The notes under the pieces: model-generated
What the model saw: only the letters and a program-made list of their open reading frames with translations
Told to the model about the DNA's origin: nothing
Database searches by the model: none
Shown here: positions 37,378 to 45,987 of the stretch, piece by piece
Position numbering within the stretch: position 1 is the first letter of the stretch
How the letters are laid out: each line of letters begins with the position of its first letter
Translations under genes and position numbers: made by a program
From: Escherichia phage BME3
Sequence record: PP239276.1
Reading direction: 5' to 3' (one strand)
DNA: 64,000 nucleotides

Positions 37378-37737
37378 ATGTGCGCTACTAATCAACATGA
37401 TATTTGTTACCAACCTCTTACTTGGCTTGGTGAGGATCACTATGCTCAACGTGTTATAGTCTGCGCTGCGAATAAGTATATTCTCAATAATGGCGAAGAG
37501 TTAATTATTCCTTGTGTTAGGCATGCAAATCCTGTACTATCTGCACAACTTAATGTTTTAAAAGATGCAGGATTGATTGATAAACTGTTTTGCTTACCTG
37601 ATAATCAAGGGTTTATTGATCAGTATTATAACTGGTGGAGTCGCAAAGATGCTTATATCATTGCAGATAACGCCAAACAAATTAACTACGAAAGAAATGG
37701 TCACAACAGTGAACTATTCAGCGAGGGATTATACTAA
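37378..37737 (+). CDS. hypothetical protein
   Basis: About 119-aa ORF. Confidence 0.35.
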   Translation: MCATNQHDICYQPLTWLGEDHYAQRVIVCAANKYILNNGEELIIPCVRHANPVLSAQLNVLKDAGLIDKLFCLPDNQGFIDQYYNWWSRKDAYIIADNAKQINYERNGHNSELFSEGLY

Positions 37738-38288
37738 TGTTTATTACAAGTGATTTGCATTTTATGCACAAACGTATCCGAGAGTTTGCTCCTGAATATC
37801 GCCCGTGGGAAGATATGGAGCATATGACAGAAGCACTGATCGAAGCATGGAATAAATGTGCCACAACACCAGGAGTAAAGATGTACCATCTTGGGGACTT
37901 CTGTTTCGGGACTGAAGAAGATACCCGTAAGATTGCTTCCCGTCTCCAAGGAGATATTACTTACTGTGTTGGGAACCATGATTATAGTAAACACAGAAAA
38001 GTGCTTGCAGAGTATGGAGAAGTGGTTTATTATGACGAAGTGAAATATCAGAAGCTGTTCTTCGTCTTAAGTCATTACCCTATGGCTGCCTGGAATAAAC
38101 AAGGGCATGGATCAATCATGCTACACGGACACTCTCACGGATCATTCCCTGACCATTTGTATGGGAAGATGTTGGATGTTGGTTGGGATGCACACGGGAA
38201 AATCTTGCATTTTGACGAAATCATCTCTATTATGGATAAGCGTGATATTGTTGTTGTAGACCATCATAAGATAATCAAAGGAGATTAA
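37737..38288 (+). CDS. metallophosphoesterase (calcineurin-like; candidate RNA 3'-end phosphatase)
   Basis: 183-aa ORF with GDFCFG, GNHD and HGHSH motifs of the metallophosphoesterase fold. Confidence 0.6.
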   Translation: MFITSDLHFMHKRIREFAPEYRPWEDMEHMTEALIEAWNKCATTPGVKMYHLGDFCFGTEEDTRKIASRLQGDITYCVGNHDYSKHRKVLAEYGEVVYYDEVKYQKLFFVLSHYPMAAWNKQGHGSIMLHGHSHGSFPDHLYGKMLDVGWDAHGKILHFDEIISIMDKRDIVVVDHHKIIKGD

Positions 38289-38289
38289 G

Positions 38290-39222
38290 GTGGCTAAGTT
38301 CAATTGTGATGACCTGATTGCAAAAGGTTTAGTGCATAAAAAAGAAGTTAAATCTGGAGAGTATGCTGGTCTTGCTGTACTTAAATACAAAAACAATGTA
38401 TTCTGGGATAACTTGTGGAACGTTGACAAACGACTTTTAGATTGTCGTGGGTTGGTTGTTGATTCAGAAGACAATGTTGTTATTTGGCCTTTTACTAAAA
38501 TCTTTAATCGTTTTGAAAATGGTACAGATCTTCCAGCAGACGAAATTGTAGATGCTGTCCGTAAAGTAAACGGTTTTATGGCATCTGTAGGTGTGTACAA
38601 AGGGAAACTTGTTGTATCAACAACAGGGAGCCTAGAATCAGATTTCGCAATTATGGCAAAGAACCGTATTGTTTCCGAGTGTGACGACATAGAGTATTTC
38701 ATTAAGTGGACAGAAAGTGCAAAAGCAACTTTTCTTTTTGAAATCTGTGATCCTTCTGATCCACATATTGTCGAAGAAGAACCAGGCGCATACTTAATTG
38801 GAGCAAGAATTCAAAATCTTGATGGGACAAGTTTCATGTTACCTGAAGGTGTTCTTGATGGGATTGCATCTGTTACAAAATTTAAACGTCCTGAAGTTTA
38901 TCCGATGATTAAATTTTCAGATGTTGTTGAAATGTCTAAACATTGTAAACACGAAGGGTTTGTAGTTCGTGAAACAAACTACCCGTTTAACTTACTGTTA
39001 AAGATTAAGTCACCATACTATCTTGCTAAAAAATTCCTTATGCGTGGTGGCAATAAGAAGTGGGATATGATTTGGGACAACCCAAACAATGCTAAACAAA
39101 TTGTTGACGAAGAATATTATACTTTGCTAGAATGGCTTCGAAACAACTTTACGAAGGCTCAATGGGCTGCTCTCGATCCACAAGAGAGACGTAAAGAAAT
39201 AGAAAACTTCTTTGGAGGCTAA
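38290..39222 (+). CDS. RNA ligase, T4 Rnl1-like
   Basis: 310-aa ORF; DCRGLVVD and nucleotidyltransferase lysine motif KVNGF parallel T4 RnlA ECRGIMFE and KEDGSL. Confidence 0.5.
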   Translation: MAKFNCDDLIAKGLVHKKEVKSGEYAGLAVLKYKNNVFWDNLWNVDKRLLDCRGLVVDSEDNVVIWPFTKIFNRFENGTDLPADEIVDAVRKVNGFMASVGVYKGKLVVSTTGSLESDFAIMAKNRIVSECDDIEYFIKWTESAKATFLFEICDPSDPHIVEEEPGAYLIGARIQNLDGTSFMLPEGVLDGIASVTKFKRPEVYPMIKFSDVVEMSKHCKHEGFVVRETNYPFNLLLKIKSPYYLAKKFLMRGGNKKWDMIWDNPNNAKQIVDEEYYTLLEWLRNNFTKAQWAALDPQERRKEIENFFGG

Positions 39223-39627
39223 ATGAAACAACTTATCATTTTACGTGGTGTTTCAGGCGCAGGTAAATCTACAGTAGCAGAAATTATCTCTGAAAATCAT
39301 TGGCCTATTTGTGAGGCAGATCAATACCACTACACTGAAGATGGTGTGTATGAGTGGAAACAAGAGAATATCCATAAAGCACACCAATGGTGTCGTGTCA
39401 AAGTACAAAAATATATGCAGTATGGTGTTGAAAAGATTATTGTCTCTAACACTTCAACCACAGAGAAAGAACTTAAACCTTATTTAACTCTTGCTGAAGA
39501 GTTTGGTTATCAAGTTATCTCTTTAGTAGTTGAAAATAGGCACGGTAACGACTCAATTCATGAGGTTCCACAACATATTCGTGATCAGCAAGAGAAACGT
39601 CTTCGCAGTTCACTTAAACTACAATAA
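39223..39627 (+). CDS. P-loop kinase (polynucleotide 5'-kinase-like)
   Basis: 134-aa ORF with Walker A GVSGAGKST at the N-terminus, T4 Pnk kinase-domain-like. Confidence 0.5.
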   Translation: MKQLIILRGVSGAGKSTVAEIISENHWPICEADQYHYTEDGVYEWKQENIHKAHQWCRVKVQKYMQYGVEKIIVSNTSTTEKELKPYLTLAEEFGYQVISLVVENRHGNDSIHEVPQHIRDQQEKRLRSSLKLQ

Positions 39628-40185: not shown

Positions 40186-40382
40186 GGTTAACTATGACAT
40201 TTATTGAAGAACTAACGAGAATTGCAAACGCGCCTAACAGTAGTGAAGATCCTTACTTTATGGTGGATGATTACACTGGTGGTAATATTGATGATGCCTA
40301 TGAACTAGGCAGACTACACGGTGAAATTGAAATGGCTAAATGGGTTCTTTCGCAACTGGAGGTTAAAGATGAAACAAACTAA
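40179..40382 (+). CDS. hypothetical protein
   Basis: 67-aa ORF. Confidence 0.3.
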   Translation: MVRLTMTFIEELTRIANAPNSSEDPYFMVDDYTGGNIDDAYELGRLHGEIEMAKWVLSQLEVKDETN

Positions 40383-41484
40383 TCCTACATTGTATGGTAA
40401 AACTTCTACAGGTAAAATTAAACAGTGGTCAGTCTATACCGAAGGTAGTGTTGTAACTGTTGCTCATGGTCAATTAGGTGGAAAGATTACTAGCAAATCT
40501 TATACAGCAGAACCTAAAAATATTGGTCGCTCAAATGAAACAACAGCAGAAGAACAAGCTGAAATAGAAGCTCTTGCCAAATGGACAAAGCAACTTAAGA
40601 ATGGGTATTATAAAACAAAAGAGGAAGCTGAAAACCATGTTCCTTCTACACCCATGAAATGTCAGGATTATAAAGATTATGCTGATCGTGTTTTGTTCCC
40701 AGGTTATGCACAATATAAATTGAATGGTCTACGTTCAATGATTAACATGCAAGGTGAATGTTTATCTAAAGCTGGGGAGGTATATAAACTTCCACCTCAC
40801 TGGGAAGAAATTCCAACCTTCATTAAAGAAGTAGTTAGTCATCCTCTTGACGGTGAAGTTTTTGCTGGTTTGGGTGTCCTTAGCCTTCAACAAATTAATA
40901 GTGCGTGGAAAAAGCATAATGCTAACACTCCGCTTCTTAAATACTATGTATATGATGTTCCTGTGCCATCTGTACCATTTGAGAAGAGGGTTGAAGTTTT
41001 GGCTGCTCTAAAAGACGTTGTTGAAGATAAAGGTTTAGATGAACTTATTTGTGTAGTACATACAGAGTACATTGAAAACCAAGAGCAGTTTGATGAATTC
41101 TATGCAAAAGCTCTGCGTGAGAAAGCGGAAGGTGTTGTGTATCGTAATGCACAAGGTGTTTACGAGTTTGATAAACGTTCTTATGATGTTATTAAACGTA
41201 AACCACGGCAGACGCTGGAAGTTAAGGTGGTAAGTGCAAAACGTGATAAAAATGGTGACGGGGTATTGACAGGTGAGATGGAAAATGGTAAAGTAGTCGA
41301 ATTCCTGATGCGTAAGGATTCAGATGAAACCATTAACTATCGTAAAGAAGAAAATGCTTTGACACTTATTGGTCAATTTGTTGAAATAGAGTACGAAGAA
41401 TTTTCAGACGAAGGTATTCCTACCAAGCCTGTTGGGGTACGTGTACGTAAGATGATTCCAGGTACTTGGGAACCAGCAGAGTAA
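40369..41484 (+). CDS. ATP-dependent nucleic-acid ligase (DNA ligase or Rnl5-type RNA ligase)
   Basis: ATG after GGAGG RBS; covalent nucleotidyltransferase motifs KLNGLR, DGEVF, EGVVYRN and VIKRK in canonical order. Confidence 0.55.
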   Translation: MKQTNPTLYGKTSTGKIKQWSVYTEGSVVTVAHGQLGGKITSKSYTAEPKNIGRSNETTAEEQAEIEALAKWTKQLKNGYYKTKEEAENHVPSTPMKCQDYKDYADRVLFPGYAQYKLNGLRSMINMQGECLSKAGEVYKLPPHWEEIPTFIKEVVSHPLDGEVFAGLGVLSLQQINSAWKKHNANTPLLKYYVYDVPVPSVPFEKRVEVLAALKDVVEDKGLDELICVVHTEYIENQEQFDEFYAKALREKAEGVVYRNAQGVYEFDKRSYDVIKRKPRQTLEVKVVSAKRDKNGDGVLTGEMENGKVVEFLMRKDSDETINYRKEENALTLIGQFVEIEYEEFSDEGIPTKPVGVRVRKMIPGTWEPAE

Positions 41485-41681: not shown

Positions 41682-42404
41682 ATGATCGAGAATTTTTTCA
41701 AACAAGTAAAAGTGGACAATAGCTTCTTTATCAAAGCTGCCGATCAAATTGTTGCTTGGAATGCTAAGGCACGCGGTGGAGTAACCCCAGAATTTACTCA
41801 AGAGATGTTTGAAGCTCAACTTTCTTTTGTACGAGAAGAACTTAAAGAGTTCCAAGCAGCAGCACAGGAAAATGATCACGTTGAATTACTTGATGCAGCA
41901 GCAGATATTTTTGTAGTAGCATCCTACCTGGCGTTTATGTTCTTTGGTAAAGAAGGTGTTGATAAAGCTCTGGAAATGCCGACAGGAGATGTTCTGGCAG
42001 AAAACATTTACGATGTTATCATCGAATTTGATAAAATGGTAGAAAATGACTTGCAATTTGCACTAATGTCTCTTACACTTACACGTATGGCACGAGATAC
42101 TTTGGTGCGTTCTGTTTATAACGAGAAGAAAGTTATGCGTGAAGTGTTGAATAGCAATGAGTCCAAGTATCCTACCAAAAAGCAACTCCTAGCTATTTGG
42201 GAAACTAAGGATATTATTGAAGCTCTTGAAAAAGAATGTGATGCTATCGAGATGCGAAGCAAAGATCGTGCAGAAGGTTCTTACACTGGAGTACATGCTG
42301 TATATAACGAAGTTCAAAAGGTGTACGTATTCTTTGATGACAAAGGTAAAATTATGAAACCATCTACCTTTGTTAAACCTAATATCGCAGCAATCATTGC
42401 TTAA
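41682..42404 (+). CDS. MazG-like nucleotide pyrophosphohydrolase domain protein
   Basis: 240-aa ORF; REELKEF...ENDHVELLDAAADIFVVASYLA matches the EExxE...E/DxxD helical motif of MazG-type NTP pyrophosphatases. Confidence 0.45.
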   Translation: MIENFFKQVKVDNSFFIKAADQIVAWNAKARGGVTPEFTQEMFEAQLSFVREELKEFQAAAQENDHVELLDAAADIFVVASYLAFMFFGKEGVDKALEMPTGDVLAENIYDVIIEFDKMVENDLQFALMSLTLTRMARDTLVRSVYNEKKVMREVLNSNESKYPTKKQLLAIWETKDIIEALEKECDAIEMRSKDRAEGSYTGVHAVYNEVQKVYVFFDDKGKIMKPSTFVKPNIAAIIA

Positions 42405-43909: not shown

Positions 43910-45028
43910 ATTAGCGGTTACATTTTAATCCAACCGGAAGACCTGCACAAATATGTTGACGAGAACACAATTCTTGCAATAGACTACGATCAAGTGGCGT
44001 TCCAAGCGTCTTCAGCTTTAGAACAAAGAAAAATCCACGCTGTACACAAGGCTTCCGGTAATGTAAAAGAGTTTGAAACAAGAACAGATTTTTGGGGTAA
44101 ATCTTCAAAAAATATTGGAGGATGGTTAGGAGCACTTAACGCGCAACGCGAAGCTGCTGGTAAGAAGTTGTTCTCTAGAGAAGATTTTGAAATAAAAGAT
44201 GTTCAAATAGTCCCAGATAATATTTCTTTTACGTTTCAAGCTGCAAAGACAAAAATAACCCAGATGATGGATCACCTAAAACTTCAAAAGTATTGCGGTG
44301 TCATCGGGGTAGGAAAAACCTTCCGGCATTCTTTCAAAATGCCAAAAGAATATAAATCAGAACGATCAGATTTAAGACCAATCCATTTATCAGATACTAA
44401 AGATTATTTAGTTGAAAAACATAACGGTGACGTTGTTACTAGTATTGAGGCAGATGATGCTTTAGAAATCTATGGATATGCAGGGTATAAAGCCTACAAG
44501 GAAACTGGTAAGTTTTCTCATATTGTAGCATCTATCGACAAAGATAGCTTGCACACACCAAGTTTACTCTTTAACTTTTATAAAGAGGATGGTGTTTATA
44601 AAAATCCTTGTATTATTCTGATTGATGAATCTATCGGTGATATCTGGATCGTAGAAAAAGGTAAGAAAAAAGAAATTAAGGGTTGGGGTAGTTACTGGTT
44701 AGCTTATCAAATGCTAATGGGCGATAAGACAGATAGTATTCGACCTTACCAAGATTTCGATGTTAAGTTTGGAGATATTACTTGCTTTAATCTTATTTCC
44801 AAATGTAAAACACAGGCTGAACTTTTTCAGACAGTTAAAGATCAGTATTATGAATGGTTCCCAGATGGCGTTAAATTTACTTCTTGGGATGGTGAAGAAG
44901 TAGAAATGACAACTGATGAATGGATAGAGACAATTTTTCAGTTGGTATATATGAAACGTTGGGCGAATGATGAAACAACTTTTGAAAGTATGCTACAAGC
45001 GTATATTTCAGAGCAGGAGGAACATTGA
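43910..45028 (+). CDS. FEN-family 5'-3' exonuclease / RNase H (T4 RNase H-like); start codon uncertain
   Basis: TSIEADDALEIYGY and YQMLMGDKTDSI parallel T4 RNase H YEADDHIAVL and KILKGDKKDNV; conserved N-terminal ILAIDYDQVAF lies upstream of the first ATG/GTG, so initiation may be at a non-canonical codon after the GGAGG at about 43901. Confidence 0.5.
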   Translation: MSGYILIQPEDLHKYVDENTILAIDYDQVAFQASSALEQRKIHAVHKASGNVKEFETRTDFWGKSSKNIGGWLGALNAQREAAGKKLFSREDFEIKDVQIVPDNISFTFQAAKTKITQMMDHLKLQKYCGVIGVGKTFRHSFKMPKEYKSERSDLRPIHLSDTKDYLVEKHNGDVVTSIEADDALEIYGYAGYKAYKETGKFSHIVASIDKDSLHTPSLLFNFYKEDGVYKNPCIILIDESIGDIWIVEKGKKKEIKGWGSYWLAYQMLMGDKTDSIRPYQDFDVKFGDITCFNLISKCKTQAELFQTVKDQYYEWFPDGVKFTSWDGEEVEMTTDEWIETIFQLVYMKRWANDETTFESMLQAYISEQEEH

Positions 45029-45987
45029 GTAAATTAACAGACGAACAGAAAGCCTTGATTGTATCTATGAAAGCACAAGGTTATTCTTCGCGTAAGATTG
45101 CACAAGAGGTGTTGGGAAGTTCTACTAAGAAGAGCACAGTAAATGATTACTTAGCTCGTGTAAATTCACCACATCGCGGTGCTCCGCAAGATAAAGGTGG
45201 GCCAGTAATTAAAATTATTGACGTAGAGACAGCACCGGAGATTGTGTATAGCTTCTCACGTTTCAAAGCCTTTATTGCACCTGAACAAGTTATTCGTCGA
45301 GGTTACTTGCTTTCCTATTCATCTGCTGATTTAGAAACAGGAGAAGTAGAAGGTAAAAACCTTAGCAATTACCCTCTGTTTGACATAGATCATACAGATG
45401 ATTGGGAATTATGTCAAGATCTGTGGCACTTGCTTGACGATGCAGATATTGTGATCGCACACAACGGTATTAAGTTTGATAAGGCTTATATTAACCAACG
45501 TTTTGCTTTTCACGGTATGGAGCCACCATCGCACTATGTTGTAATTGATACACTCAAGGCAGCTAAGAAGCAGTTTGCACTACCTTCTAATGCGCTTAAA
45601 GAAATGTGTTTGTATTTTGATACAGAAAACTTTAAACTTGACAATGAAGGTTTTCCTTTGTGGAAAGCATGTTGTGAAGGAGACAGACACGCCTTCTTCC
45701 GTATGCAAACATACAACGATGGTGATGTTGTTTCTCTTAGAGATCTTTACATCAAACTTCGTGCGTGGATTCCACAACATCCTAACGTATCTGCATTCTA
45801 TGACGATGAAAAACTTCGTTGTCCTCGTTGCGGTAAAGAGCACCTTGAAGTTGTTCCTGGTAAGGTTTACACAACAGCGGTTAGTACATTCCAAGTACTA
45901 AGATGCACATCATGTAATAGCCTGTCTCGTGGACGTGTTAATTTGCGTAGCAAAGAGAAGCGTGTAAACACTGTTATTGGAATTTAA
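45025..45987 (+). CDS. DnaQ-like 3'-5' exonuclease with N-terminal helix-turn-helix and C-terminal zinc ribbon
   Basis: IKIIDVETAP (Exo I), IVIAHNGIKFD (Exo II), YNDGDV (Exo III); CPRCG...CTSCN pairs at the C-terminus; TTG start after AGGAGG. Confidence 0.55.
   Translation: MSKLTDEQKALIVSMKAQGYSSRKIAQEVLGSSTKKSTVNDYLARVNSPHRGAPQDKGGPVIKIIDVETAPEIVYSFSRFKAFIAPEQVIRRGYLLSYSSADLETGEVEGKNLSNYPLFDIDHTDDWELCQDLWHLLDDADIVIAHNGIKFDKAYINQRFAFHGMEPPSHYVVIDTLKAAKKQFALPSNALKEMCLYFDTENFKLDNEGFPLWKACCEGDRHAFFRMQTYNDGDVVSLRDLYIKLRAWIPQHPNVSAFYDDEKLRCPRCGKEHLEVVPGKVYTTAVSTFQVLRCTSCNSLSRGRVNLRSKEKRVNTVIGI

Follow-up and report, generated by a model that had tools for sequence, protein, structure and literature searches.

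Four PDB entries (6IMJ, 6IMK, 6IML, and 6IMN; Chen et al. [quoted passage not shown] Its N-terminal domain was termed "unique" and "completely novel," its active-site residues were also called "unique," and these features were the reason given for proposing the enzyme as a drug target (PMC6344480). The β7-α3 loop of the N-terminal domain fits into the DNA major groove, and Gln98 on helix α3 forms an H-bond with a DNA phosphate (PMC6344480). [quoted passage not shown] AsfvLIG with Asn153 ligates DNA, and an N153D reversion within multiple mutants lowered the activity (PMC6344480). In human LIG1, a salt bridge joins Asp570 and Arg871 at the equivalent positions (PMC6344480). Earlier work, as cited there, holds that this salt bridge and two Phe residues of LIG1 contribute to fidelity. 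Later reviews list AsfvLIG as a "single node" or as "unclassified" (PMC7470946, PMC12133292).

Three other groups of enzymes are relevant. Bacterial ATP-dependent DNA ligases that combine WGR, nucleotidyltransferase, and OB_2 domains were noted by Williamson and Leiros in 2020 (PMC7470946). The Chlorella virus PBCV-1 ligase and the bacterial Lig E share the catalytic core. Finally, a K-x-N-G motif I, with Asn in place of the usual Asp, has been reported in RNA ligases, namely, fungal Trl1 (PMC6379707) and archaeal MthRnl (PMC4797309). In the Chlorella virus DNA ligase, the motif I Asp was reported to be essential for DNA adenylylation (step 2), as cited in PMC4797309.

Among phages, PHROG 114 collects ligases such as phi92 gp091, PVP-SE1 gp110, and those of rV5-, Felix O1-, and PAK_P1-like myoviruses. 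Its annotations mention neither an Asn/Asp dimorphism in motif I nor a link to AsfvLIG, and we found no biochemical characterization of any phage member of the family in the literature. Here we analyze a ligase gene in a window of 64,000 nucleotides from Escherichia phage BME3 (PP239276.1), to which all positions refer. Its product is very probably the single ATP-dependent DNA ligase of the phage, composed of a WGR-like, an adenylation, and an OB domain.

The ligase gene and its phage relatives

The window comes from a phi92-like Escherichia phage and is 98% identical in nucleotide sequence to phi92 and its relatives. The ligase open reading frame runs from the ATG at 40369 to the TAA at 41482 to 41484 and encodes 371 residues (Table 1). 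A longer frame starting with GTG at 40321 was rejected as the gene start; the additional part lies inside the upstream gene, and the annotated start of phi92 gp091 corresponds to 40369. The protein is 98.4% identical to that of phi92 and 99.5% identical to that of phage VivaForever. Phi92 gp091 already carries the annotation "ATP-dependent DNA ligase," and the BME3 protein is a direct member of PHROG 114 with no structural difference from the phage ligases named above. As a gene, it is unremarkable and has been annotated before, and the call itself changes nothing.

Homologues are present in 815 phage records, and the family comprises 327 clusters at 50% identity (E < 1e-30). Close relatives are essentially confined to phages: the genomes of 185,579 species gave one match, on an 87-kb contig of a metagenome-assembled genome.

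Table 1. Positions of the ligase gene, its predicted domains and motifs, and the neighboring RNA ligase-like gene in the BME3 window
Feature	Position	Strand	Basis or remark
Rnl1-like gene	38290..39222		
Ribosome binding site GGAGG	40358..40362	+	6 nt before ATG; same site annotated as RBS of phi92 gene 091
ATP-dependent DNA ligase CDS, 371 aa + stop, phi92 gp091 orthologue	40369..41484	+	ORF, aa identity, PF01068, PHROG 114
N-terminal domain, aa 1-92, four β-strands + long helix; predicted DNA-binding	40369..40644	+	AF2, hhalign, Foldseek, profile
K-N-I-G-R-S-N-E-T-T insert, aa 50-59	40516..40545	+	aligned to AsfvLIG β7-α3 loop (K85-N86...K89-K90-N91); gap in WGR profile
Gln63 codon	40555..40557	+	invariant in 135 representatives; aligned to AsfvLIG Gln98
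Nucleotidyltransferase (adenylation) domain, aa 96-278	40654..41202	+	PF01068, AF2 model
Motif I K-L-N-G-L-R, aa 117-122	40717..40734	+	K117, predicted AMP-accepting lysine; K117 and G120 invariant
Asn119 codon, AAT	40723..40725	+	replaces canonical Asp
Motif Ia S-K-A-G, aa 133-136 (family consensus S-R-G-G)	40765..40776	+	column counts
Motif III L-D-G-E-V-F, aa 160-165	40846..40863	+	E163 invariant
Leu173 codon	40885..40887	+	aligned to AsfvLIG Leu211 (human LIG1 Phe635), nick-site residue; sLQdI versus AsfvLIG PLQWI
Motif IIIa Y-Y-V-Y-D-V, aa 192-197	40942..40959	+	column counts, read from sequence
Motif IV E-G-V-V-Y-R-N, aa 254-260	41128..41148	+	E254, G255 invariant
Motif V V-I-K-R-K, aa 274-278	41188..41202	+	K276, K278 invariant
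C-terminal OB-fold domain, aa ~281-362	41209..41454	+	AF2 strands; alignment to AsfvLIG OB domain
Motif VI region GIPTKPVGVRVR (G-I-P-T-K-P-V-G-V-R-V-R), aa 349-360	41413..41448	+	motif VI-like; alignment

A complete set of nucleotidyltransferase motifs

The protein matches the Pfam family DNA_ligase_A_M (PF01068) with 44 bits against a cutoff of 26.2 (E = 2.7e-11), as do 134 of 135 family representatives, and PHROG 114 ("ATP-dependent DNA ligase") matches residues 7 to 361 with an E value of 1.5e-74. Its NCBIfam matches, PRK09125 included, are DNA ligases without exception. The preliminary description had read the gene as a covalent nucleotidyltransferase with Asn for the motif I Asp, and these matches, far beyond chance, bear it out. 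The four motifs that it had listed in order (KLNGLR, DGEVF, EGVVYRN, and VIKRK) are all in place, and we additionally found motifs Ia and IIIa and a motif VI-like region. The seven invariant motif residues in Table 1 refer to the 135 representatives, which are about 30 to 50% identical to the BME3 ligase.

The OB region (residues 281 to 360) is β-rich in the AF2 model and superposes on the OB domains of ligases. The Pfam model for this domain, PF14743 (DNA_ligase_OB_2), matches the BME3 ligase weakly (E = 0.0062), yet it matches 96 of the 135 family members. Arg360, at the end of the motif VI-like region, is kept in 146 of 151 sequences. By alignment, Thr352 and Lys353 in the same region are the equivalents of Leu402 and Gln403 in AsfvLIG and of Arg871 and Phe872 in human LIG1.

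Profiles and predicted fold place the protein with DNA ligases

The AF2 model of the full-length ligase has a pLDDT of 93.4. In a Foldseek search of the PDB, its best matches were the closed AsfvLIG-DNA complexes (E = 2e-24; TM scores of 0.77 and 0.71 over about 405 columns), and the open AsfvLIG complex gave a TM score of 0.48. All matches ranked 1 to 49 are DNA ligases. AsfvLIG is also the best relative of known structure by family profile (E = 9e-59, 202 bits), and the profile further matched the Chlorella virus ligase (E = 1e-41) and Lig E (E = 3e-37). The T7 ligase (1A0I) is more distant, with a profile E value of 3.7e-9 and Foldseek rank 29. [quoted passage not shown]

RNA ligase profiles gave a different result. 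Neither PF09511 nor PF09414 matched the BME3 ligase at an E value of ≤0.01, so the profile comparison proposed earlier came out for DNA_ligase_A_M; a secondary match to PF09414 ("RNA_ligase") is present in 34 of 135 family members. The family profile also matched chain 2vug with 24 bits (E = 9.4e-5). The depositor names only the ORF; we take this chain to be the RNA ligase PAB1020, the sole RNA ligase that we recognized in the profile search. Every profile and fold comparison agrees in assigning the predicted BME3 protein to the DNA ligases.

The Chlorella virus ligase and Lig E are the next-best relatives of the catalytic core. They share the OB_2-type OB domain with the BME3 ligase but lack an N-terminal DNA-binding domain; the Chlorella virus enzyme uses a latch, which Lig E does not have. 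The Chlorella virus ligase has Asp in motif I, as do Lig E (4D05) and the T4-type ligase of phage CR9, whereas the BME3 ligase has Asn. The α-helical N-terminal domain of T4-type ligases is absent from the AF2 models, which have a four-stranded sheet and a helix there instead, and the T4 ligase alignment covers the catalytic core only. Trl1-LIG and Methanobacterium MthRnl resemble the BME3 ligase in the Asn at the third position of motif I. They differ from it in domain architecture, lack a C-terminal OB domain and motif VI, and have no significant profile or fold similarity to it beyond the nucleotidyltransferase core.

One candidate for a characterized family member was rejected. The commercial DNA-to-RNA "R2D ligase" presumably stems from Cronobacter phage CR9, a member of the Vequintavirinae; phages of the rV5 and PVP-SE1 types belong to this subfamily too. 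The CR9 ligase, CR9_264, is of the T4 type (phmmer to 6DT1, 4e-36) and has no BLASTP similarity to the BME3 ligase. The published source of R2D ligase is given only as "Chronobacter phage" (PMC12121391).

A probably WGR-like N-terminal domain

The first 92 residues, modeled alone, reached a pLDDT of 94.8. An hhalign comparison of this domain with a WGR alignment gave 94.7% (E = 6e-8). Foldseek matched it to the WGR domain of 2RA8 (E = 0.016, TMq of 0.61), to a phage WGR protein (E = 0.0096), and to pithovirus and solivirus DNA ligases (TMq of 0.65 to 0.86). The Pfam WGR model (PF05406) stayed below threshold on N-terminal domains alone, with E values of at least 0.17 in 3 of 42, and on full-length proteins it gave an E value of 0.0071 in 1 of 135. 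The W-G-R triad reads H-G-Q in the BME3 ligase, and there is a 12-residue insert relative to the canonical domain. Taken as a predicted structure, residues 1 to 92 probably form a divergent WGR-like domain. In the bacterial WGR ligases (PMC7470946), too, a WGR-type domain is followed by adenylation and OB_2-type OB domains; unlike theirs, the BME3 domain falls below the Pfam WGR threshold and lacks the triad, and we liken the two by architecture.

The N-terminal-domain profile alone matched residues 71 to 113 of AsfvLIG (E = 2.4e-5). The two domains share a core, G-K-N-x-G-x-x-N-x-T-T...Q-A, that includes Gln98 of AsfvLIG and Gln63 of the BME3 ligase. In the phage family, Lys50, Asn51, Gly53, Asn56, and Thr58 of this core are at least 90% conserved. 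AsfvLIG was absent from the 50 top PDB matches in the Foldseek search with the N-terminal domain alone, and its first 60 or so residues (1 to 63) did not align in sequence with the BME3 domain, which is 92 residues long against 120 in AsfvLIG. The case for homology between the core of the BME3 domain and that of AsfvLIG is therefore built on the profile match and on superposing the full-length proteins, not on a domain-level fold search.

Over their full lengths, the two enzymes have the same domain order (a β-rich N-terminal DNA-binding domain, then the adenylation and OB domains) at only about 21% identity. Motif I of AsfvLIG is K151-R-N153-G, so that K-x-N-G is common to both and Asn153 corresponds to Asn119. 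Leu211 is likewise shared, as Leu173, and the motif VI pair differs (Thr352-Lys353 versus Leu402-Gln403). Two of the four "unique" nick-site residues of AsfvLIG are thus present in the BME3 ligase. By sequence comparison, the N-terminal core and the Asn and Leu nick-site residues appear to be widespread in phage ligases, which is a modest new point. AsfvLIG thereby gains an evolutionary context: our comparisons support a relationship with a very large phage family and a reading of its N-terminal domain as a derived WGR domain.

Asn and Asp alternate in motif I and covary with motif VI

Among 150 representatives plus the BME3 ligase, position 119 is Asp in 90, Asn in 59, and Glu in 1, with one gap; in the 120 closest clusters, it is Asn in 109 and Asp in 11. 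The two states switched at least 23 times on the tree, versus 43 times for shuffled states, and the change needs a single A/G transition in the AAT codon. Position 173 is mostly Leu (123 sequences, with Phe in 26). Asn119 therefore appears to be nothing special in this family, in which this nick-site position commonly carries either Asp or Asn. It should also be compatible with DNA ligation, because AsfvLIG also has Asn. Given the requirement for Asp in the Chlorella virus ligase, Asn could in principle lower the activity.

The motif VI pair follows the state of position 119. Arg352 occurs only with Asp119 (21 of 80, versus 0 of 54 with Asn; P = 1e-5) and Lys353 is enriched with Asn119 (32 of 54, versus 14 of 80 with Asp; P = 9e-7), in statistics that ignore kinship. 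The pair tends to be T/L-K alongside Asn and Q/R-F alongside Asp. This pattern suggests that the contact at which the adenylation and OB domains meet beneath the nick has been retuned, not that the substrate class has changed.

Genomic neighborhood and ligase complement

The Rnl1-like gene noted earlier as lying about 1 kb upstream ends 1,146 nt before the ligase start. By its sequence, its motif I is probably K-V-N-G; the gene product had no significant match to the PDB by sequence. It is part of an RNA-repair-like cassette (phosphoesterase, Rnl1-like ligase, and kinase) about 1.1 kb from the ligase gene, with five small ORFs in between. The ligase gene itself stands in a tight same-strand block with genes for a MazG-like pyrophosphohydrolase, an RdgC-like protein, exonucleases, a DNA polymerase exonuclease subunit, and a thymidine kinase. 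Promoter and terminator counts from 36.5 to 43 kb were not above the shuffled expectation, and therefore we claim no operon boundaries.

In the complete genome of a relative, phage alia, a single DNA ligase and a single RNA ligase are annotated, and tblastn with a T4-type ligase and with an E. coli LigA query not drawn from a sequence record found no further DNA ligase there. The preliminary description had offered either two RNA ligases or one RNA ligase and one DNA ligase. The latter is supported, because the alia genome has no other DNA ligase, and the DNA ligase profiles and folds speak for it as well; the former is not.

Function of the BME3 ligase and alternative readings

By homology with AsfvLIG, the three domains would encircle nicked duplex DNA as a closed ring. 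As in other members of the superfamily of such ligases, Lys117 would attack ATP to give ligase-AMP, the AMP would be transferred to the 5'-phosphate at the nick, and attack by the 3'-OH would seal the strand. We infer from this homology, and from the presence of a sole DNA ligase gene, that the enzyme uses ATP to seal duplex DNA at nicks with 3'-OH and 5'-PO4 ends. During phage replication, the enzyme may join Okazaki fragments and seal nicks in recombination and repair. With a nick-sealing ligase of its own, the phage would therefore not depend on the NAD-dependent LigA of the host. "Replicative" is a conclusion that we draw only from the sole DNA ligase gene, because the one characterized relative, AsfvLIG, is an unusual, error-prone ligase for base excision repair in a eukaryotic virus. 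The phage homologues come in natural Asp and Asn versions and are easily expressed, and they offer material for studying the effects of these residues on efficiency and fidelity.

A DNA ligase of relaxed specificity, resembling AsfvLIG, is an unlikely alternative, differing from the explanation above in substrate range only. With Asn119, Leu173, Thr352, and Lys353, the enzyme would tolerate nicks that have a 3' mismatch, damaged or modified bases, or ribonucleotides, and it would serve in repair or on hybrid substrates rather than as a strictly replicative ligase. The two residues shared with the crucial four of AsfvLIG point this way, as do the absence of the salt bridge (Asp-Arg) and of both Phe residues that human LIG1 has, the covariation of Asn with loss of Arg352 and Phe353, and the RNA-repair-like cassette nearby. 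However, the AsfvLIG mutants changed in efficiency only, not in fidelity (PMC6344480), Thr352 and Lys353 differ from the AsfvLIG pair, Leu173 is the majority state in Asp-type members too, and the only DNA ligase of a phage must at minimum seal ordinary nicks. In a wider form of this reading, which is equally unlikely, the ligases of the family would fall into two types at the nick site, canonical (Asp with Q/R-F) and AsfvLIG-like (Asn with T/L-K), and the Asn form, the BME3 enzyme included, would be a relaxed-specificity ligase. If so, Asn-form ligases would join strands at nicks next to mismatches, modified bases, or ribonucleotides, and there would be many new candidate ligases for biotechnology. 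"Error-prone" AsfvLIG would then be an offshoot of a large lineage of WGR-domain ligases of phages and giant viruses and not a unique invention.

It is very improbable that the protein is a second RNA ligase, a nick-sealing enzyme of the Rnl5 or Rnl2 kind that partners the nearby cassette in RNA repair and whose Asn reflects RNA ligase ancestry. The preliminary description rightly stated that a motif I Asn occurs in some RNA ligases, Trl1 and MthRnl being the cases in point, and the secondary PF09414 matches and the position of the cassette fit such a role. Its hint of an RNA ligase function is not supported, as Asp and Asn interchange freely within one DNA ligase family, the protein has the OB domain and motif VI of a DNA ligase, and the 49 best fold matches include no RNA ligase. 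The lack of an RNA ligase Pfam match at the threshold used, the 24 bits of 2vug, the presumed RNA ligase, against 202 for AsfvLIG, and the five ORFs before the cassette also argue against it, and the phage would be left without a DNA ligase. Even less probable is a catalytically crippled or nonenzymatic homologue in which the motif I Asp has been lost. The step 2 requirement in the Chlorella virus enzyme, as cited in PMC4797309, would favor it, but the other catalytic residues are all invariant across a family of thousands, and in AsfvLIG it is the Asn form that ligates DNA and the reversion to Asp, in multiple mutants, that lowered activity (PMC6344480). Moreover, the Asn form is retained at 63 to 99% identity in many phage genomes.

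Identity of the ligase

The gene at 40369 to 41484 is an intact ORF. A mechanically longer ORF from GTG-40321 runs into the preceding gene, and the annotated start of the phi92 orthologue corresponds to 40369. The four nucleotidyltransferase motifs claimed in the preliminary description were all found in the order given, and Asn119 indeed replaces the motif I Asp. Three further motifs (Ia, IIIa, and a VI-like motif) were recognized.

Features of the ligase and its surroundings (window positions, or residues of the ligase where marked aa)
Feature	Position	Strand	Remark
Metallophosphoesterase	37737-38288	+	PHROG 547
Rnl1-like RNA ligase	38290-39222	+	Pfam RNA_lig_T4_1, PHROG 562
Small P-loop AAA_33/polynucleotide-kinase-like protein	39223-39627	+	
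Ribosome-binding site GGAGG	40358-40362	+	6 nt upstream of ATG
Ligase ORF	40369-41484	+	371 codons + TAA
Motif I KLNGLR	aa 117-122		Asn119 codon AAT at 40723-40725
Motif Ia SKAG			
Motif III LDGEVF	aa 160-165		
Motif IIIa YYVYDV			
Motif IV EGVVYRN	aa 254-260		
Motif V VIKRK	aa 274-278		
Motif VI-like GIPTKPVGVRVR	aa 349-360		
MazG-like pyrophosphohydrolase	41682-42404	+	
344-aa ORF	43994-45028	+	
DNA polymerase exonuclease subunit	45025-45987	+	
RdgC-like protein		+	neighbor block
Exonuclease		+	neighbor block
Thymidine kinase		+	neighbor block

A 4.8-kb region spanning the gene shares 97 to 98% identity with Escherichia phage phi92 and about 50 other Justusliebigvirus genomes. RefSeq labels phi92 gp091, with which the protein shares 98.4% identity, "ATP-dependent DNA ligase." Therefore, the gene is already known and annotated. 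Pfam DNA_ligase_A_M matched aa 96 to 278 (44 bits; cutoff, 26.2), with a weak DNA_ligase_OB_2 match, and PHROG 114 "ATP-dependent DNA ligase" matched aa 7 to 361 (E = 1.5e-74). All seven NCBIfam matches are DNA ligases, led by the Lig E-like PRK09125. No RNA-ligase Pfam family matched at an E value of ≤0.01.

In a phmmer search of the PDB, aa 39 to 356 aligned with residues 74 to 406 of AsfvLIG, the African swine fever virus DNA ligase (PDB 6IMJ, 6IMK, 6IML, and 6IMN; Chen et al. 2019, PMC6344480). Some of the sequence preceding the catalytic domain is included in this alignment, which shows that motif I of AsfvLIG is K-R-N-G. With a profile of 135 family representatives, AsfvLIG again matched (E = 9e-59; 202 bits), as did the Chlorella virus ligase (1e-41), Lig E (3e-37), and 2vug PAB1020 (9.4e-5), which we take to be an RNA ligase. 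T7 ligase reached 3.7e-9 with this profile. The AlphaFold2 model of the protein (pLDDT 93.4; pTM 0.81) best matched closed AsfvLIG:DNA complexes (E = 2e-24; TM 0.77/0.71; about 405 columns), whereas the open complex gave a TM of 0.48. The predicted structure is therefore in the ring-closed state. The PDB fold matches at ranks 1 to 49 are DNA ligases throughout. We conclude that the window ligase is an ordinary phage ATP-dependent DNA ligase. As judged from family membership, it would carry out the three chemical steps of ligation.

Asn in motif I is common in the family

HMMER was run exhaustively against 1.84 billion representatives and returned 327 clusters (50% identity) with E values of <1e-30 and 3332 with E values of <1e-10. 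The best 150 clusters all cover the full protein, including the N-terminal domain. At the third position of motif I, their representatives plus the window ligase show 90 Asp, 59 Asn, 1 Glu, and 1 gap; K117 and G120 are invariant. Asn prevails among the 120 nearest clusters at 90% identity (109, against 11 with Asp). Asn at this position is thus not unusual within the family. Mapped by Fitch parsimony on a neighbor-joining tree of the 135 representatives, the D/N state changes at least 23 times; when the states are shuffled, the mean is 43 changes and the lowest value 35. Therefore, the state is phylogenetically clustered, yet it has switched many times, as may be expected where one A/G transition (AAT/GAT) suffices.

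About 6 of the 150 representatives are 706 to 785 aa long, owing to an interrupted motif I region (P0128, P0162, P0179, and P0196; by length, also P0175 and P0189). Pfam scans of four of them (P0128, P0162, P0179, and P0196) identified the insert as an intein that contains a LAGLIDADG homing endonuclease. The site lies at or just after motif I, and the query alignment breaks at about aa 119 to 133. The window gene has no intein.

KxNG has, as the preliminary description said, been reported for some RNA ligases, namely, fungal Trl1 (PMC6379707) and MthRnl (PMC4797309). However, the Asn is dispensable in both (PMC6379707; PMC4797309), and AsfvLIG, with Asn153, is a biochemically proven DNA ligase (PMC6344480). 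Hence, motif I Asn does not reveal the substrate class.

Two nick-site residues covary with motif I

Chen et al. called four nick-site residues of AsfvLIG unique (PMC6344480). Our profile alignment agrees with their residue numbers (K151, N153, L211, L402, and Q403), and the window ligase has two of the four (N119 and L173).

[quoted passage not shown]
AsfvLIG	Human LIG1	Window ligase	Family
Asn153	Asp570	N119	D 90, N 59
Leu211	Phe635	L173	Leu 123, Phe 26
Leu402	Arg871	T352	T/Q/L/R
Gln403	Phe872	K353	F 78, K 52

Arg352 occurs only beside motif I Asp (21/80, against 0/54 with Asn; Fisher P = 1e-5, kinship ignored), with at least 9 gains or losses on the 135-representative tree. Lys353 is commoner with Asn (32/54, against 14/80 with Asp; P = 9e-7, kinship ignored). 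We read this covariation as a putative coupled nick-site module, D with R/Q-F or N with T/L-K. Such a module is consistent with the Asp570-Arg871 salt bridge of human LIG1 (PMC6344480).

The N-terminal domain resembles WGR domains

Alone, aa 1 to 92 were predicted to form four strands and a long helix (pLDDT 94.8). The N-terminal-domain profile matched AsfvLIG residues 71 to 113 (E = 2.4e-5); next came 2RA8, a Bacteroides protein (E = 0.071) whose aligned segment is a genuine WGR domain by Pfam (67 bits). By Foldseek, 2RA8 was also the top PDB match for aa 1 to 92 (E = 0.016; prob 1.0; TMq 0.61), and AsfvLIG was absent from the top 50. The viral structure library returned pithovirus-like and solivirus giant-virus DNA ligases (TMq 0.65 to 0.86) and a phage "WGR domain-containing protein." The Pfam WGR model itself stayed below threshold on the family proteins and their N-terminal domains, and profile-profile comparison of these domains with a WGR alignment (hhalign) gave 94.7% probability (E = 6e-8; 60 columns).

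Relative to WGR, the ligase domain has a 12-residue insert, K-N-x-G-x-x-N-x-T-T, that aligns with the β7-α3 loop of AsfvLIG (K85...K89-K90-N91), which sits in the DNA major groove (PMC6344480). Gln63, an invariant residue, lines up with AsfvLIG Gln98, which hydrogen bonds a DNA phosphate (PMC6344480). Given these matches and aligned DNA contacts, aa 1 to 92 are best described as a derived WGR domain serving as a predicted DNA-binding domain.

The AsfvLIG N-terminal domain is longer (120 aa) and was published as a "completely novel" fold unlike other ligases (PMC6344480); its core appears to be common to the phage family and thereby tied to WGR domains. Reviews list AsfvLIG as "single node" or "unclassified" (PMC7470946; PMC12133292, from 2025), and Williamson and Leiros noted bacterial WGR-NT-OB_2 ligases as uncharacterized (PMC7470946). 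Modestly new is the comparative picture: a large family of phage ligases commonly has the Asn and Leu nick-site residues and apparently also this supposedly unique domain, which is probably WGR derived. The pithovirus-like and solivirus ligases bear the same domain. In 2009, Yutin and Koonin suggested, broadly, that the ASFV ligase came from phages or bacteria (PMC2806865). Our cellular-genome scan for family relatives found one MAG contig only.

Role in the phage and alternative readings

The complete 147-kb genome of the close relative alia is annotated with one DNA ligase, the orthologue of the window gene, and one RNA ligase. Queries with a T4-type ligase and E. coli LigA found no further DNA ligase in alia or the window by tblastn. 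The gene lies in a dense same-strand block with the genes for the MazG-like pyrophosphohydrolase, RdgC-like protein, exonuclease, DNA polymerase exonuclease subunit, and thymidine kinase. From these two observations, we infer that it encodes the general replication and repair DNA ligase of the phage. Promoter and terminator scans over 36.5 to 43 kb were uninformative, with counts not above shuffled expectation.

The preliminary description had proposed two RNA ligases, or one RNA and one DNA ligase. The alia annotation bears out the second option; the profiles, the fold, and the OB/motif VI architecture speak against the first. That the window protein is an RNA ligase, as KxNG had suggested, is thus very improbable, being contradicted also by the D/N interchange in the family and by the absence of another DNA ligase from alia and the window. 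A dead enzyme is likewise very improbable, because the catalytic residues are invariant and AsfvLIG sets a precedent for activity. A ligase of relaxed specificity, like AsfvLIG, is unlikely but is the most interesting residual possibility; against it, AsfvLIG mutagenesis linked the nick-site residues to efficiency, not fidelity (PMC6344480).

The 344-aa ORF, whose last 4 nt run into the DNA polymerase exonuclease subunit gene, has no Pfam match at an E value of ≤0.01. Its phi92 counterpart carries the remark "No RBS identified; weak Prodigal statistics," and alia labels it a putative exonuclease. Both phi92 (L001:445-3143) and alia (L006:36833-39531 and L006:1319-2131) encode nicotinamide phosphoribosyltransferase, ribose-phosphate pyrophosphokinase, and a Sir2-like protein for NAD salvage and use, and despite this their DNA ligase is ATP dependent, not NAD dependent. 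In alia (L004:43544-46720 and L006:13523-16783), four consecutive glycosyltransferase genes stand beside primase/helicase and DNA polymerase genes, with a full dTDP-rhamnose synthesis set. These genes may serve DNA hypermodification, possibly touching ligase substrate tolerance, or surface-sugar metabolism.

The R2D ligase, presumably from Cronobacter phage CR9, was rejected as a relative, since the CR9 ligase is T4 type and unrelated to the window ligase. CR9_264 (L003:39177-40553, minus strand) has a helical DNA-binding domain and matches T4 ligase 6DT1 (phmmer E = 4e-36). Its place in the genome matches that of the window ligase, adjoining a MazG-like gene and near the NAMPT and ribose-phosphate pyrophosphokinase genes. 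DNA ligase has apparently undergone nonorthologous displacement among large enterobacterial myophages.

Upstream of the ligase, three abutting ORFs (37737 to 39627, plus strand) resemble an RNA-repair cassette with end healing and sealing divided between proteins, much like T4 Pnkp plus Rnl1. Its Rnl1-like RNA ligase had no PDB match by sequence and has a probable motif I, K-V-N-G, at aa 92 to 95.
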